This document shows positions 4,501 to 26,575 of a stretch of 31,509 nucleotides of DNA, in pieces (the stretch's first letter is position 1; each line of letters starts with the position of its first letter). The stretch is taken from IMG/VR virus record IMGVR_UViG_3300022871_000073, one strand, 5' to 3'. The notes below the pieces were generated by a model. That model was not told the origin of the DNA and made no database searches. It saw only the letters and a program-made list of their open reading frames with translations. This DNA is from a virus. A program made the translations under genes and the position numbers.

Positions 4501-4583
4501 GTAGCCCAGGTGGACTCGAACCCACAACCCTACAAAGGGACGGGAGTTTAAGTCCCGCGCGTATAACCATATTGTGACATTGT
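4501..4583 (-). tRNA. tRNA-like element, possibly degenerate (Leu-UAA-like anticodon arm and V-arm; acceptor pairing not found)
   Basis: Anticodon stem CGGGA/TCCCG with loop CTTAAAC, V-arm hairpin CCC-TTTGTA-GGG, T-loop TTCGAGT. No pairable 5' acceptor strand found. Confidence 0.3.
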
Positions 4584-4666
4584 AACCCTGGTGGGATTCG
4601 AACCCACAAACCTTTTGGTACCTGATCCTTAATCAGGCGCGTTTTAACCAATTTCGCCACAGAGCC
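4583..4666 (-). tRNA. tRNA, class II (Leu-like; anticodon loop reads AAG)
   Basis: T-arm GTGGG-TTCGAAT-CCCAC, acceptor GGCTCTG/CAGGGTT with G.U pairs, anticodon arm CCTGA-TTAAGGA-TCAGG, V-arm ACC-AAAA-GGT. Confidence 0.45.
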
Positions 4667-4672
4667 ATTTGT

Positions 4673-4746
4673 ACACCAGGAGAGAATCAAACTCTCGAAA
4701 AACAGGGCTTAAGCCTGTTGTGTATTTCATCGTCCACCACAGGTGC
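4673..4746 (-). tRNA. tRNA (anticodon UAA, short V-loop; Leu-like)
   Basis: T-arm GAGAG-TTTGATT-CTCTC; anticodon arm ACAGG-CTTAAGC-CCTGT. Paralog of the next tRNA. Confidence 0.45.
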
Positions 4747-4754
4747 ATAAAAAA

Positions 4755-4829
4755 GTACGCTTGATCGGAATCGAACCGACGAAAGGCACGGTCTAAACGT
4801 GTTATGTATTCCAACGTCCACCACAAGCG
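4755..4829 (-). tRNA. tRNA (anticodon UAG; Leu-like)
   Basis: T-arm GTCGG-TTCGATT-CCGAT, acceptor GCGCTTG/CAAGCGT, anticodon loop TTTAGAC. Confidence 0.45.
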
Positions 4830-4838
4830 CATGAATTA

Positions 4839-4923
4839 GTAACCGAAACGGGAATCGAACCCGTACGAGCGCAATGCTCACGAGATTTTAAGTCTCGCAT
4901 GTCTACCAGTTTCATCATTCGGT
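4839..4923 (-). tRNA. tRNA-Leu(UAA), class II
   Basis: T-arm ACGGG-TTCGATT-CCCGT, anticodon arm CGAGA-CTTAAAA-TCTCG, V-arm GAGC-ATTGC-GCTC. Confidence 0.55.
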
Positions 4924-4951
4924 CATTTCATTATTTCAAAGAGCATTTTTT

Positions 4952-5024
4952 GATGTCCTACCGGGATTTGAACCCGGACTGCCAGATTCAAAATCTGACG
5001 TGTTACCAATTACACTATGGGGAC
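4952..5024 (-). tRNA. tRNA-Gln(UUG)
   Basis: T-arm CCGGG-TTCAAAT-CCCGG; anticodon arm TCAGA-TTTTGAA-TCTGG. Confidence 0.45.
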
Positions 5025-5029
5025 AATTT

Positions 5030-5100
5030 GCTGAGATATTAGGAGTCGAACCTAACTTTGCGAGTTCAAAGCCCGCCGTAAAACCGATATACTGTATCTC
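5030..5100 (-). tRNA. tRNA-Gln(UUG)-like
   Basis: T-arm TTAGG-TTCGACT-CCTAA, acceptor TGAGATA/TATCTCA, anticodon loop CTTTGAA. Confidence 0.45.
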
Positions 5101-5113
5101 AAGTTTTCAACAT

Positions 5114-5144
5114 AAAAAAACCTGGATCAAATTAATGATCCAGG
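5114..5144 (-). terminator. intrinsic terminator / attenuator hairpin upstream of tRNA array 1
   Basis: CCTGGATC-AAATTAAT-GATCCAGG followed on the minus strand by U7. Confidence 0.6.
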
Positions 5145-5177
5145 ATTTCTTAGTTTTATTTTATGACATAACTCTTC

Positions 5178-5240
5178 CTAGACCACTATTTGCAATAGTA
5201 ATTGTTGGAGTTGTAATGTTATGTTATTCATTGTTTTCAT
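5178..5240 (-). CDS. leader peptide MKTMNNITLQLQQLLLQIVV (Leu/Gln-rich)
   Basis: ATG 18 nt after the promoter TATA. Five Leu and four Gln codons. The stop codon lies inside TCTAGGA, which can pair with the terminator 5' strand TCCTGGA. Confidence 0.5.
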   Translation of the reverse strand: MKTMNNITLQLQQLLLQIVV

Positions 5241-5258
5241 GTTTATTAATTATTCTGT

Positions 5259-5288
5259 ATTATATATACTTCAAAATGAAAAAGTTTA
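5259..5288 (-). promoter_or_regulatory. phage promoter-like motif (TAAACTTTTT-N9-GTATATATAAT)
   Basis: Consensus motif upstream of the leader ORF and tRNA array 1. Confidence 0.55.
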
Positions 5289-5335
5289 TCAATTAAATGT
5301 AAATATATCAAAAATGATGATCAGTTTGACATCTA

Positions 5336-5701
5336 TTAAAAAGTATTTAAATCAAGTTTACTTCGCAAAAAATAAATTGCATCGTTGTATGCATTGAGCA
5401 CCATCCGCTCATCGGTACCAAATGATCTTGATATGATTGATCCTAATTCCTCAATTTTCTTGATATCAAATTTTGTTCCATTGACCAGAACATCCATCAC
5501 GTTCATCACAACATCGTTATCGTACTGGCGTAACACTTTACTTTCAAGCTCAAGTATAATTTTATCCTTTGATTTTTCATCCAGCTCTAATGTTGCATCC
5601 TGAACATTTTTCGAGTTTTTCTTGAGTTTTTCAATTTCTGAAGTCCAGGAATCAATCCAAGATTCATTGATAAATTCATCGAAAGATGCGTGGTTTCTCA
5701 T
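5336..5701 (-). CDS. hypothetical protein (121 aa)
   Basis: ORF track; start overlaps the upstream stop (ATGA). Confidence 0.5.
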   Translation of the reverse strand: MRNHASFDEFINESWIDSWTSEIEKLKKNSKNVQDATLELDEKSKDKIILELESKVLRQYDNDVVMNVMDVLVNGTKFDIKKIEELGSIISRSFGTDERMVLNAYNDAIYFLRSKLDLNTF

Positions 5702-25260: not shown

Positions 25261-25387
25261 GCTTTTGTTTAATTATTTTTAAAATTTATTCCCATTCACC
25301 TTTTGCATCTCCGTTTATGGTATTAATTTTTCCATTATTTTTCTTTTGTTTTTATATCTATACAAAATATCAAAAAATATTAATTAG

Positions 25388-25459
25388 TAGCCCAGCCCGG
25401 TAACGATCCGGGGTCTCCGCCTTGAAAGGGCGACGACATAACCTCTAGTCCACAGGGCC
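25388..25459 (-). tRNA. tRNA-Glu(UUC)
   Basis: Anticodon arm TCGCC-CTTTCAA-GGCGG and D region ACTAGAGG closely resemble bacterial tRNA-Glu. T-loop atypical (ATCGTTA). Confidence 0.5.
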
Positions 25460-25469
25460 ATATAAATTG

Positions 25470-25541
25470 TAATCCGACGGGGAATCGAATCCCGATTAAC
25501 GGGTCGAAAACCTGTAGGCCTAACCGTTAGACGATCGGATC
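25470..25541 (-). tRNA. tRNA (anticodon loop TTTTCGA, UUC-like; anticodon stem has one mismatch)
   Basis: T-arm CGGGA-TTCGATT-CCCCG; acceptor GATCCGA/TCGGATT. Confidence 0.4.
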
Positions 25542-25547
25542 ATTTTG

Positions 25548-25618
25548 TTGGGATAGCTGGATTCGAACCAACGACCTTCCCCTTTCCGAGGACGCGCTAA
25601 CCACTACGCTATATCCCT
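25548..25618 (-). tRNA. tRNA (anticodon unresolved)
   Basis: T-arm GTTGG-TTCGAAT-CCAGC; acceptor AGGGATA/TATCCCA; D-loop TAGTGGTTAGCGC. Confidence 0.4.
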
Positions 25619-25691
25619 GAACTTTATAAATACCCTTAAACACGTTATGTCGACATTCTGTGTCTAAGTTGCGCTGTATTCATTAAATTCG

Positions 25692-25779
25692 CTCTCGAGG
25701 TAGGATTCGAACCTACGATGGAGTATTAACTCACCAGGTTAACAGCCTGGACCAGTCGACCGCTATGGCAACTCGAGAA
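25692..25779 (-). tRNA. tRNA (anticodon GUU, Asn?; long V-arm)
   Basis: T-arm GTAGG-TTCGAAT-CCTAC; acceptor TCTCGAG/CTCGAGA; anticodon arm CCAGG-CTGTTAA-CCTGG; 17-nt V region. Confidence 0.4.
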
Positions 25780-25784
25780 TTTAA

Positions 25785-26021
25785 TTATCGTATTTTTATG
25801 AAATCTTCATTTTCTATTGCTTTTCTAATGTATCTCATTAAAGTAATCGCTTTAATTTCTTTGTCAAATGGCGCAGATCCAACTTCTTTTGCTTCTGTGC
25901 TTATTGGAAATTGATAAATCTCACCTTCAAATTCAACTGTATAGTAAAGGTTACCACCGCAAAAATAACTGAAATTCGCCAGTTTTGTTCTATCTCTTAT
26001 TACGTCTATTACTTTAATCAT
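25785..26021 (-). CDS. hypothetical protein (78 aa)
   Basis: ORF track; sits between tRNA-Asn and array 5. Confidence 0.45.
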   Translation of the reverse strand: MIKVIDVIRDRTKLANFSYFCGGNLYYTVEFEGEIYQFPISTEAKEVGSAPFDKEIKAITLMRYIRKAIENEDFIKIR

Positions 26022-26041
26022 TTTATTTTAATTTTAATTTG

Positions 26042-26115
26042 AGCTCCGAGTGAGATTCGAACTCACATCCTGGAAATTAACAGTTTCCTGCTTTACCAAT
26101 TATAGCTATCGAAGC
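26042..26115 (-). tRNA. tRNA-Asn(GUU)
   Basis: Acceptor GCTTCGA/TCGGAGC; anticodon arm GGAAA-CTGTTAA-TTTCC; T-arm GTGAG-TTCGAAT-CTCAC. Confidence 0.6.
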
Positions 26116-26117
26116 AT

Positions 26118-26152
26118 AAAAAAACCGGTGAAAAAATTAATTTCCACCGGTT
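26118..26152 (-). terminator. intrinsic terminator / attenuator hairpin upstream of tRNA-Asn
   Basis: AAACCGGTG-(N14 with AAATTAATTTT)-CACCGGTTT followed on the minus strand by U7. Confidence 0.6.
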
Positions 26153-26176
26153 TATAAAAGTTTTTGAAAAACAACA

Positions 26177-26251
26177 TTAAATACCTGATGGATGCAAGAA
26201 ATTATTATTTTCTTGTTCCTCAAAATTTACGATATTTATGTTTCTTTTCAT
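26177..26251 (-). CDS. leader peptide MKRNINIVNFEEQENNNFLHPSGI (Asn/Glu-rich)
   Basis: Six Asn and three Glu codons. Shares the MKRxINI N-terminus with the leader at 26885-26956. A weaker promoter-like motif lies at about 26268-26300; the main promoter is at 26414-26443. Confidence 0.45.
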   Translation of the reverse strand: MKRNINIVNFEEQENNNFLHPSGI

Positions 26252-26413
26252 TGAATTATTTATTAAATTTTAAAAGAATATACCAGCAGCTGATTTATGT
26301 TTCACAATCAATTTAAATGCGAAGGAATCCCATTCTCACTTTCCTCACATACTGTTAGAGCCGAATGGACCTAAACTATTTCATTCTCTTTATTTGTTTA
26401 TTTCTAAACCTTT

Positions 26414-26443
26414 ATTATATATACATCAAAATTTATTAGTTTA
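26414..26443 (-). promoter_or_regulatory. phage promoter-like motif (TAAACTAATA-N10-GTATATATAAT)
   Basis: Motif variant, preceded by the 35-nt repeat element. Confidence 0.45.
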
Positions 26444-26503
26444 TTAATTAATTGTAAATATAACAAAAAATTAATACGAATCCATTACAAATTATTTAAA
26501 AAG

Positions 26504-26575
26504 CACAACTGTCAGGAATTGAACCCGAATCAAAGCTTTTGGAGAGCCCCATGTTACCAATTACACCACAGATGT
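26504..26575 (-). tRNA. tRNA-Trp(CCA)
   Basis: T-arm TCGGG-TTCAATT-CCTGA; acceptor ACATCTG/CAGTTGT; anticodon arm GGGCT-CTCCAAA-AGCTT. Confidence 0.5.

Follow-up and report, generated by a model that had tools for sequence, protein, structure and literature searches.

A large tRNA gene set with unusual variable arms in an AT-rich phage contig

The tRNA genes and their decoding range

The window analysed here, a 31,509-nucleotide (nt) stretch of viral DNA (IMG/VR record IMGVR_UViG_3300022871_000073), carries a large set of transfer RNA (tRNA) genes. ARAGORN called 36 of them, every one on the minus strand, over positions 4582-26659, and called none in 30 dinucleotide-preserving shuffles of the window. 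With the gathering score of the Rfam tRNA covariance model RF00005 (29 bits) as cut-off, 34 of these loci were recovered under default filters and a 35th, Ser-GCU at 9241-9332, scored 37.1 bits under permissive filters only. A relaxed ARAGORN run (-ps90, threshold 90%) added Ser-UGA at 9964-10052. Two extra tRNA-like loci, at 8229-8300 and about 24886-24952, came from an Rfam score just below threshold or from reading the sequence. The RF00005 cut-off was not reached by Asp-GUC (26584-26659), Ser-UGA, the locus at 8229-8300 (28.0 bits) or that at about 24886-24952. A first-pass annotation, made from the letters alone, had proposed about 39 tRNA loci; the 36 default calls, Ser-UGA and the two tRNA-like loci bear this out, and both predictors accept most of the loci. 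We therefore regard the large tRNA set as confirmed and that outline as correct.

The genes and associated features of the first part of the span (strand in brackets; tRNA scores are for RF00005) are:

4582-4666 (-): tRNA-Leu(AAG), 85 nt, class II, A73; ARAGORN; Rfam 52.5 bits
4671-4746 (-): tRNA-Leu(UAA), 76 nt, short variable region (4-5 nt), 3-bp Leu-type D stem, A73; ARAGORN; Rfam 43.4 bits
4755-4830 (-): tRNA-Leu(UAG), 76 nt, lacking the long variable arm, A73; ARAGORN; Rfam 40.6 bits
4839-4924 (-): tRNA-Leu(UAA), 86 nt, class II; ARAGORN; Rfam 54.1 bits
4952-5025 (-): tRNA-Gln(UUG); ARAGORN; Rfam 55.5 bits
5030-5101 (-): tRNA-Gln(UUG), second copy, G73; ARAGORN; Rfam 47.8 bits
5121-5144 (-): terminator-like hairpin and T-run immediately upstream of the Gln-Leu array
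7905-7979 (-): tRNA-Gly(GCC); ARAGORN; Rfam 59.5 bits
7986-8059 (-): tRNA-Arg(UCG); ARAGORN; Rfam 54.7 bits
8063-8137 (-): tRNA-Gly(UCC), encoded CCA; ARAGORN; Rfam
8141-8216 (-): tRNA-Arg(GCG), encoded CCA; ARAGORN; Rfam
8229-8300 (-): tRNA-Gly(UCC)-like, GTC-GAAA-GAC hairpin within the D-loop; Rfam 28.0 bits; RNAfold cloverleaf; Gly-UCC in ARAGORN mitochondrial mode
8310-8381 (-): tRNA-Cys(GCA), U73; 5' end overlaps the 3' end of the endonuclease gene; ARAGORN; Rfam
8361-9044 (-): free-standing endonuclease open reading frame (ORF), NUMOD3 motif; Pfam NUMOD3; phrog_314/23051
9074-9145 (-): tRNA-Thr(CGU), the sole C34 isoacceptor with a U34 partner; ARAGORN; Rfam 54.4 bits
9241-9332 (-): tRNA-Ser(GCU), 92 nt, U73; ARAGORN; Rfam 37.1 bits (permissive filters only)
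9333-9398 (-): leader/spacer hairpin element, copy 1
9399-9483 (-): tRNA-His(GUG), 84 nt plus encoded G-1, C73, conserved 14-nt variable region ACATAAGAAACATC; ARAGORN; Rfam 54.5 bits
9483-9568 (-): leader/spacer hairpin element, copy 2, its last base (9483) being G-1 of tRNA-His
9569-9651 (-): tRNA-Tyr(GUA), 83 nt, class II, A73; ARAGORN; Rfam 49 bits
9785-9868 (-): tRNA-Thr(UGU), 84 nt, class-II-like 13-nt variable arm, G1-C72, C2-G71; ARAGORN; Rfam 51.1 bits
9876-9955 (-): tRNA-Pro(UGG), 80 nt, 8-nt variable loop; ARAGORN; Rfam 34.9 bits
9964-10052 (-): tRNA-Ser(UGA), 89 nt, atypical T-loop; ARAGORN -ps90 only; sequence reading
10061-10134 (-): tRNA-Ala(UGC), G3-U70; ARAGORN; Rfam 56.6 bits
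10142-10225 (-): degenerate tRNA-Ser derivative, long variable arm, irregular anticodon loop; ARAGORN tRNA-?(Pro|Ser)(gg); Rfam 30.8 bits

Those of the second part are:

22682-22755 (-): initiator-type tRNA(CAU), U1/U72 mismatch, three G-C pairs at the base of the anticodon stem; ARAGORN; Rfam 45.2 bits
23965-24036 (-): tRNA-Val(UAC); ARAGORN; Rfam 56.9 bits
24043-24116 (-): tRNA(CAU), G37, C31/A39 mismatch, candidate Met or Ile2; ARAGORN; Rfam 54.7 bits
24226-24301 (-): elongator-type tRNA(CAU), candidate tRNA-Ile2 (lysidine) or tRNA-Met; ARAGORN; Rfam 54.2 bits
24308-24379 (-): tRNA-Phe(GAA); Rfam 69.7 bits
24385-24458 (-): tRNA-Phe(GAA), second copy; ARAGORN; Rfam 57.7 bits
24467-24540 (-): tRNA-Arg(UCU); ARAGORN; Rfam 62.2 bits
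24541-24606 (-): leader/spacer hairpin element, copy 3
24607-24695 (-): tRNA(CAU), 89 nt, 20-nt variable arm (CCUC-UUCG-GAGG hairpin), 1:72 mismatch, initiator-like D stem (A11:U24); Rfam 45.3 bits
24698-24770 (-): tRNA-Ile(GAU); ARAGORN; Rfam 55.3 bits
24807-24881 (-): tRNA-Lys(UUU); Rfam 69.2 bits
24886-24952, approximate (-): tRNA-Lys paralogue lacking the anticodon arm, with acceptor, D and T arms retained; sequence, fold and alignment to Lys
25054-25090 (-): intrinsic-terminator-like hairpin between the Glu and Lys arrays
25387-25459 (-): tRNA-Glu(UUC), A54/U58-type T-loop (ATCGTTA); ARAGORN; Rfam 49.2 bits
25469-25541 (-): tRNA-Glu(UUC), second copy, stem mismatches; ARAGORN; Rfam 44 bits
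25547-25618 (-): aberrant 'Phe(GAA)' tRNA, G33; ARAGORN; Rfam 48.6 bits
25691-25778 (-): tRNA-Asn(GUU), 88 nt, class-II-like 17-nt variable arm, G73; ARAGORN; Rfam 40.3 bits
26041-26115 (-): tRNA-Asn(GUU), normal length; ARAGORN; Rfam 61.2 bits
26122-26153 (-): terminator-like hairpin immediately upstream of tRNA-Asn
26503-26575 (-): tRNA-Trp(CCA), G73; ARAGORN; Rfam 52.4 bits
26584-26659 (-): tRNA-Asp(GUC), G73, C38, A54/U58-type T-loop (ATCGTCA); ARAGORN only, not reported by Rfam

The approximately 37 genes form five or six short co-oriented arrays, with small ORFs, the endonuclease gene and terminator-like hairpins between them. U33 and a 7-nt anticodon loop are present in 35 of the 37 ARAGORN calls, the exceptions being 10142-10225 (6- or 8-nt loop) and 25547-25618 (G33). 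A tRNA array unit has been defined as at least 20 tRNA genes at a density of at least 2 per kb (Tran et al. 2015, PMC4758250). In the first part of the span (4582-10225, 5.6 kb) ARAGORN called 19 genes by default, a number raised to 21 by Ser-UGA and the Gly-like locus; the second (22682-26659, 4.0 kb) holds 17, and the whole 22.1-kb span 37, or 1.7 per kb.

ARAGORN assigns 27 distinct anticodons covering 20 amino acids, to which the relaxed run adds Ser-UGA. None of the 20 amino acids is left without a decoder, and an initiator tRNA is present as well; full coverage depends on Asp-GUC, just beyond the range of the first-pass annotation. Every anticodon listed there was recovered, including four CAU tRNAs, and Leu-AAG, Arg-GCG, Thr-CGU and Asp-GUC had been overlooked. 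The claim that most anticodons carry U34 does not hold as an overall count, since only a plurality of the 37 genes, 16, have U as wobble base; 13 have G, 6 have C and a single one has A, and the loop of the remaining gene is irregular. It does hold for every box that offers a choice: each of the 13 boxes open to U34 or C34 has a U34 tRNA, and C34 is added in the Thr box only. Pyrimidine-ending codon pairs are served by G34 tRNAs. The supposed lack of encoded CCA ends applies to 35 of the 37 genes, the exceptions being 8063-8137 and 8141-8216.

As had been proposed, one CAU tRNA has initiator features. The gene at 22682-22755 combines the 1:72 mismatch with the three G-C pairs (GGG/CCC stem base) of bacterial initiators; in that at 24607-24695 the mismatch is joined by no more than two such pairs. 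The other two CAU tRNAs (24043-24116 and 24226-24301) are of elongator type, and ATA makes up 39% of the Ile codons in the phage. The tRNA-His gene is bacterial in form, with a G at 9483 that serves as G-1 before G1 and C73 after the acceptor stem, both also present in all of its homologues.

Phage T4 carries 8 tRNA genes; the set described here is far larger and nearly complete. T4/T5-type clusters (SegB; PMC13096335) resemble it in their co-oriented tRNAs, short spacers, embedded free-standing endonuclease and mostly absent CCA. SegB has a GIY-YIG domain, whereas the endonuclease of the window has NUMOD3 and an HNH-like motif. The latter is a Cys-rich ORF inside the tRNA region whose 3' end overlaps tRNA-Cys by about 20 nt; its putative C-terminal HNH-like motif was read by eye and confirmed by no profile.

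Phage, probable host and codon usage

Products encoded between the arrays include a homologue of gp30.3 and a PHROG phosphoesterase, a protein that gave tail/virion matches, and proteins of GH16, LysM/CHAP and GNAT type. An 804-aa protein (14179-16593, minus strand) combines major-vault-protein (MVP) repeat and shoulder domains with an SPFH/Band-7 domain and, along its full length, shares 50-52% identity with proteins of LR756500 (462 kb) and of LR756501 and LR756503 (735 kb). In the phage collection it matched these three huge-phage genomes only, and one IMG/VR contig was matched in addition. The 462- and 735-kb sizes agree with those of the huge phages described by Al-Shayeb et al. 2020 (PMC7162821), who report as many as 67 tRNAs in a genome and, for the largest genomes, hosts among the Bacteroidetes. 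Like the window, these three genomes combine dozens of tRNAs and AT-rich DNA with predicted Bacteroidota hosts and a related MVP-like protein. Unlike the window, LR756500 has tRNA arrays that are not syntenic with the MVP gene, and an amber-suppressor-type tRNA(CUA) near its arrays.

The window has neither a terminase nor a capsid gene, the link to huge phages being the identity of the MVP-like protein alone. The phage is represented here by one 31.5-kb window, so that its membership of the huge phages or their Mahaphage clade, defined by genomes over 200 kb and by terminase or capsid phylogeny, is putative. None of 50,697 phage records was matched when 12 kb of the window served as a Megablast query, and relatives were seen at the protein level only; an MVP-based search of IMG/VR returned one relative and a gp30.3-based search none. 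ENA, JGI and Logan assemblies contain contigs with the same locus and the same tRNAs, at 99.3-99.9% identity, of which the longest recovered are 27-28 kb. This recurrence indicates a real, recurrent uncultured phage. Stop codon usage in the window is standard (TAA 37, TGA 7, TAG 3).

A clue to the host comes from two adjacent genes of Bacteroidota type, encoding a TonB_C protein (223 aa) and a DUF4842 protein (444 aa), at 10725-12737 on the minus strand. The nearest cellular homologues of the latter are in freshwater metagenome-assembled genomes labelled 'uncultured Bacteroidales', at 45-51% identity over the full length. The Bacteroidales DUF4842 loci carry no tRNAs and have A at 19% of third positions. 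The host is thus likely to be a Bacteroidales bacterium of about 48% GC, as judged from this homology.

Codon usage was computed over 7203 phage codons. Third positions are A in 38%, T in 37%, G in 13% and C in 12%, and the GC content of the phage is 33% as against 47-49% in Bacteroidales-like loci. The ratio A/(A+G) is higher in the phage than in those loci in all 13 purine-ending boxes, and TTA, AGA, CAA, CCA and CGA are used 3-5 times more. Comparison of codon usage with the anticodon set shows that each of these 13 A-enriched boxes has a U34 tRNA.

Among the genes between the arrays, those at 13127-13672 and 16660-17271, both on the minus strand, encode a GNAT acetyltransferase and a metallophosphoesterase (phrog_547) respectively; neither has a demonstrable tRNA link. 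A search of PDB sequences with a 365-aa ORF gave no match.

tRNA architecture and amino acid identity

In the usual partition of tRNAs into classes I and II, a variable arm of at least 10 nt is confined to Leu, Ser and Tyr, and other tRNAs have 4-5 nt. The window departs from this in both directions. Long variable regions are present in His (14 nt), Thr-UGU (13 nt), the long Asn-GUU (17 nt) and the CAU tRNA at 24607-24695 (20 nt). Conversely, the Leu tRNAs at 4671-4746 (UAA) and 4755-4830 (UAG) have only 4-6 nt, together with Leu-type D arms and A73. According to a 2023 identity review (PMC9976931), animal mitochondria are the only place where Leu and Ser tRNAs have given up the long arm, and the leucyl-tRNA synthetase (LeuRS) of E. 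coli requires A73 but not this arm. Given this independence from the arm, the short Leu tRNAs are plausible substrates. They recall the class I form of animal mitochondrial tRNA-Leu in their UAA/UAG anticodons, A73 and missing arm, but are bacterial in type, with normal D and T loops.

The bases that specify charging follow the amino acid of the anticodon, not Ser or Leu. In the window, G-1 and C73 are found in His, G73 in Asn, Trp and Asp, U73 in Cys, and A73 in all four Leu tRNAs. The same holds across IMG/VR loci: G1-C72 and C2-G71 in Thr (14/14), C73 in His (7/7), A73 in Lys (7/8), G73 in Asn (4/5), U73 in Cys (3/3), G73 in Trp (4/4), G73 in Ser (47/57) and A73 in short Leu (27/29).

These forms are conserved well beyond the window. 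In a 16-sequence alignment of the long Thr-UGU family, 17 of 20 pairs show compensatory changes, and a strain variant of the same phage carries two fully compensatory double substitutions in the T stem. In the LR756500 homologue of the long tRNA-His (84 nt), three stems show compensatory changes and the variable region is almost unchanged; the acceptor stem of this tRNA covaries among homologues. (An RNAalifold consensus of five tRNA-His homologues paired the anticodon with the conserved variable region and mis-folded the anticodon arm, and was set aside as an artefact.) Long Asn homologues occur in IMG/VR contigs and in phiKZ, long CAU tRNAs with an identical anticodon arm in IMG/VR contigs, and short Leu homologues in large-phage contigs.

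Scanning IMG/VR for the His variable region recovered His tRNAs of 200-430-kb contigs, and also Tyr(GUA) with A73, one Cys(GCA) and one irregular tRNA. This sharing suggests that anticodon and identity may have been switched on one scaffold, and the likeness to tRNA-Tyr of other phage contigs suggests that the long tRNA-His arose by duplication and anticodon change. A second scan collected 97 tRNAs with the search pattern, of which 37 were long with non-Leu/Ser/Tyr anticodons: 17 Thr-UGU, 6 Lys, 4 Asn, 3 Cys, 2 Met, 2 Trp, 1 Gln, 1 of amber-suppressor type and 1 with an irregular loop. Among the neighbouring tRNAs of these loci, which were not chosen by the pattern, 31 of 492 non-class-II tRNAs were at least 80 nt long and 27 of 63 Leu tRNAs were at most 78 nt. 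The 1.3 Mb of bacterial loci fetched as a control for long non-class-II tRNAs held a single tRNA of any kind, too few for a comparison. Other long tRNAs of class I isotypes in relatives are Gln-UUG of 91 nt (contig L001, 1109-1199), Glu-UUC of 85 nt (LR756500, 20120-20204) and Pro-CGG of 92 nt (contig L019, 8837-8928). Amber-suppressor-type tRNAs (CUA) are found in relatives (LR756500, 28116-28184; contig L089, 5048-5135), one with a long variable arm, and none in the window.

Several known tRNAs invite comparison. The tRNA-Asn(GUU) of phiKZ (PHIKZ_t02, 89 nt) and the tRNA-Thr(UGU) of HPP-Temi (87 nt) look cognate and share with the window a GNRA-type variable-arm hairpin (GGC-GAAA-GCC in phiKZ) and the T arm CGTAGGTTCGAATCCTAC. 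Both adjoin annotated HNH endonuclease genes. These phages differ from the present one in having Pseudomonas hosts and only a handful of tRNAs, and the phiKZ gene encodes CCA. Allo-tRNAs and phage (8/4) tRNA-Ser/His (PMC5389517) also pair a long variable arm with a non-Leu/Ser/Tyr anticodon, and some lie in phage tRNA clusters. They have 8/4 or 9/3 geometry and/or Ser identity, whereas ARAGORN folds the long tRNAs of the window as 7/5, with identity bases that accord with the anticodon and discriminators U73 (Thr), G73 (Asn), C73 (His) and U73 (CAU). The reported (8/4) tRNA-His (Mukai et al. 2017, PMC5389517) is without G-1 and has A73 or U73, in contrast to the G-1 and C73 found here. Nematode nev-tRNAs (PMC3333845) are class II with anticodons for neither Leu nor Ser, but unlike the tRNAs of the window they have Ser or Leu identity regardless of anticodon. 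In the literature we consulted, whose coverage is not exhaustive, we found no account of class-II-like Thr, Asn, His or Lys tRNAs or of short Leu tRNAs in phages, and phage genes of these unusual forms are already annotated in GenBank. The large tRNA set itself is ordinary for huge phages; the class-II-like cognate tRNAs and short Leu tRNAs are its most interesting and under-described part.

Some of the genes are evidently related to one another. Among all tRNA pairs (mean identity 0.54, sd 0.05), the three highest values are 0.75, 0.70 and 0.69, for Arg-UCG 7986-8059 and Arg-GCG 8141-8216 (75%), Leu-UAA 4671-4746 and Leu-UAG 4755-4830 (70%), and Thr-UGU 9785-9868 and Asn-GUU 25691-25778 (69%). 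These are three of the four paralogue pairs of the first-pass annotation; the fourth (24808/24888) is upheld by shared D and T arms around a 19-nt deletion.

Other loci are aberrant. That at 10142-10225 has an anticodon loop of 6 or 8 nt (CUGGGAAG), a shortened anticodon arm and one base lost from the 3' strand of the acceptor; with a phage tRNA-Ser(UGA) it shares 76% identity, and it is probably a decayed tRNA-Ser gene. The frameshift or missense role considered for it was dropped on account of this resemblance. Position 33 of the 'Phe' tRNA at 25547-25618 is G in the window but A in a strain variant, and only a T-arm remnant is left at 24138-24223. In the T-loops of Glu 25387-25459 (ATCGTTA) and Asp 26584-26659 (ATCGTCA), T54/A58 are swapped to A54/U58, a variant also seen in Glu and Phe tRNAs of IMG/VR contig L028.

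Explanations of the set and signals around the genes

We consider it probable that this is the tRNA gene set of an AT-rich phage of very large size, a relative of the Bacteroidota 'huge phages', that it supplies decoders for A-ending codons along with a near-complete, self-sufficient set, and that it has grown partly by local duplication. The arrays would be transcribed as polycistrons and cut by host RNase P and 3' processing enzymes. Because 35 of the 37 genes are without CCA, a CCA-adding enzyme would be needed to complete the tRNA ends. Charging by the cognate synthetases is expected because the discriminator and acceptor identity bases match the amino acid of the anticodon. The set could then supply decoders for A-ending codons used 1.3-5 times more in the phage than in its probable host of about 48% GC. 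Since it is essentially complete, it would also maintain phage translation when host tRNAs are limiting, degraded or attacked. Part of its enlargement may reflect local duplication followed by anticodon change, as in Thr-UGU/Asn-GUU, Arg-UCG/Arg-GCG and Leu-UAA/Leu-UAG.

Several observations weigh against this interpretation. Searches of about 30 ORFs of the window with Pfam, PHROGs and NCBIfam found no synthetase, CCA-adding enzyme or tRNA-processing enzyme; they likewise found no RNA ligase or tRNA-modifying enzyme, apart from a weak, sub-threshold 2H/CPD match at 18948-19445. The clue to the host comes from one gene, that for DUF4842, which is shared horizontally. The codon match is imperfect, Val, Pro and Ala having one U34 tRNA each although GTT is the commonest Val codon. 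Four or five aberrant loci (those with the 6/8-nt loop, G33, absent anticodon arm and D-loop insertion, and the remnant at 24138-24223) may be dead. Variation in the strain population is similar at tRNA positions (0.67%) and other positions (0.73%), so that constraint is visible only through compensatory changes and distant homologues.

It is possible, if doubtful, that the set serves counter-defence or independence from the host. The full set would then replace host tRNAs depleted by tRNA-cleaving defences or by phage shut-off, and the odd architectures (variable arms added to His, Thr, Asn and CAU tRNAs and missing from Leu tRNAs, and the A54/U58 T-loops) would be poor nuclease substrates. 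The completeness of the set is consistent with this, as is the conservation of the structural variants, with covariation, across many large-phage contigs. T5 tRNA-Tyr reportedly withstands cleavage through a distinct variable loop, and homing endonucleases adjoin phage tRNA genes (PMC13096335); an endonuclease gene lies within the tRNA region of the window, as HNH genes flank the long tRNAs of phiKZ and HPP-Temi. Counter to this, no defence system, nuclease directed at tRNAs or tRNA-repair gene was seen in the window, no known nuclease has been tied to gain of a variable arm in Thr, Asn or His tRNAs, and the variants could be neutral, as synthetases may tolerate variable-arm insertions.

We think it rather unlikely that codon compensation acts by itself, with the tRNAs solely topping up decoders of codons ending in A or T that a GC-richer host seldom uses. 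The first-pass annotation had seen the set as suited to an AT-rich phage in a host with a different codon bias, and part of the evidence agrees: the enrichment of A-ending codons extends to all 13 purine-ending boxes, all 13 have U34 and one has C34, and the duplicated Glu-UUC, Leu-UAA, Gln-UUG, Phe and Asn genes read heavily used codons. Other members of the set do not fit. Arg-GCG reads CGC, used 0.8 times per 1000 codons in the phage as against 13.3 in host-like loci, and the codons of Thr-CGU (ACG) and Leu-AAG (CTT) are likewise less used in the phage. Codon bias is irrelevant to the Trp, Cys, Met and initiator tRNAs that are present. AAA, the top phage codon (565 of 7203), has one intact tRNA-Lys, and the 476 Asp codons have one tRNA-Asp. 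Codon compensation is thus partly supported but incomplete as an explanation; the tRNAs for codons rare in the phage, with Trp, Cys, Met and the initiator, favour a self-sufficient set over codon top-up alone.

Recoding or missense translation is highly improbable. In this scheme the long Thr, Asn, His and CAU tRNAs would be charged by the Ser, Leu or Tyr synthetases (SerRS, LeuRS or TyrRS), like allo- or nev-tRNAs, and the Ser-like tRNA with the 8-nt loop would promote frameshifting. The D-loop AGCGGTCGA and 3-bp D stem are Ser/Tyr-like, D-loops of this type being present in the long Thr-UGU and Asn-GUU, the G73 of Asn-GUU is the commonest Ser discriminator in phage loci, and the His variable region is common to tRNA-Tyr of other phage contigs. 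Against this, identity bases track the anticodon in the IMG/VR His, Lys and Thr sets, acceptor/T-stem geometry is 7/5, the 8-nt-loop tRNA resembles a decayed Ser gene, and the long Thr-UGU is the sole decoder of ACA, the commonest Thr codon. It is scarcely conceivable that the DNA is a bacterial or plasmid tRNA array: Bacteroidota-type TonB_C and DUF4842 genes do lie between the arrays, and tRNA array units occur in bacteria (PMC4758250), but the gp30.3, phosphoesterase and tail/virion matches, the restriction of MVP-like matches in the phage collection to huge phages, the low GC content and the lack of tRNAs at bacterial DUF4842 loci all argue for a phage.

A broader proposal, which we offer tentatively and think rather unlikely to hold, is that large phages, from phiKZ-like jumbo phages to the 735-kb relatives, keep cognate tRNAs that break the class rule: long Thr, Asn, His and initiator-like Met tRNAs (elsewhere Lys, Trp, Cys, Gln and Ile) and many Leu tRNAs shorn of the long arm. 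They would have been made by duplication and by switching of anticodon and identity, and selected for nuclease resistance or for letting a phage factor that removes host tRNAs discriminate between the two sets. One uncultured lineage here combines a full decoding set with four non-Leu/Ser/Tyr tRNAs that have long variable regions and two Leu tRNAs that do not. If the shapes are adaptive, they bear on a tRNA-centred arms race between phages and defence nucleases, and offer a natural source of tRNA scaffolds still accepted by synthetases.

Outside the genes themselves, a few recurrent features were observed. Position 74 is C after all 37 tRNAs, with a CAA trailer in 22 of the 37 and CCA in 2, and the base before position 1 is T in 31 of the 37; these leader and trailer bases may be a shared processing signal. 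The normal-length tRNA-Asn (26041-26115) differs at many positions, and by a 5'-proximal insertion, in strain variants L002 and L004, which suggests that this allele was replaced by recombination within flanking DNA that is more than 99% identical.

A repeated leader element of 55-85 nt abuts the 5' ends of Ser-GCU, His and Arg-UCU at its three listed copies (9333-9398, 9483-9568 and 24541-24606, minus strand). It has the form AAAAAGG-stem-TTACAGCAAAyAA...stem'-CCTGTwAAA, with covarying stems GGTACGT/ACGTACC, GGTTTG/CAAACC and GGTTGAT/ATCAACC, and related hairpins occur at 25619-25690 and 9652-9784. When searched for elsewhere, the element was present only in strain variants of the same phage. 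The Bacteroidota promoter motif TTTG-N17-23-TAnnTTTG is not positioned upstream of the tRNA arrays, and sigma-70-like sites are no more frequent in the window than in shuffles. Four similar terminator-like hairpins lie on the minus strand, at 5121-5144, 25054-25090, 26122-26153 and 26819-26846; at least three of the four have AATTAAT-type loops followed by T-runs, and three stand directly upstream of a tRNA array and one between arrays.

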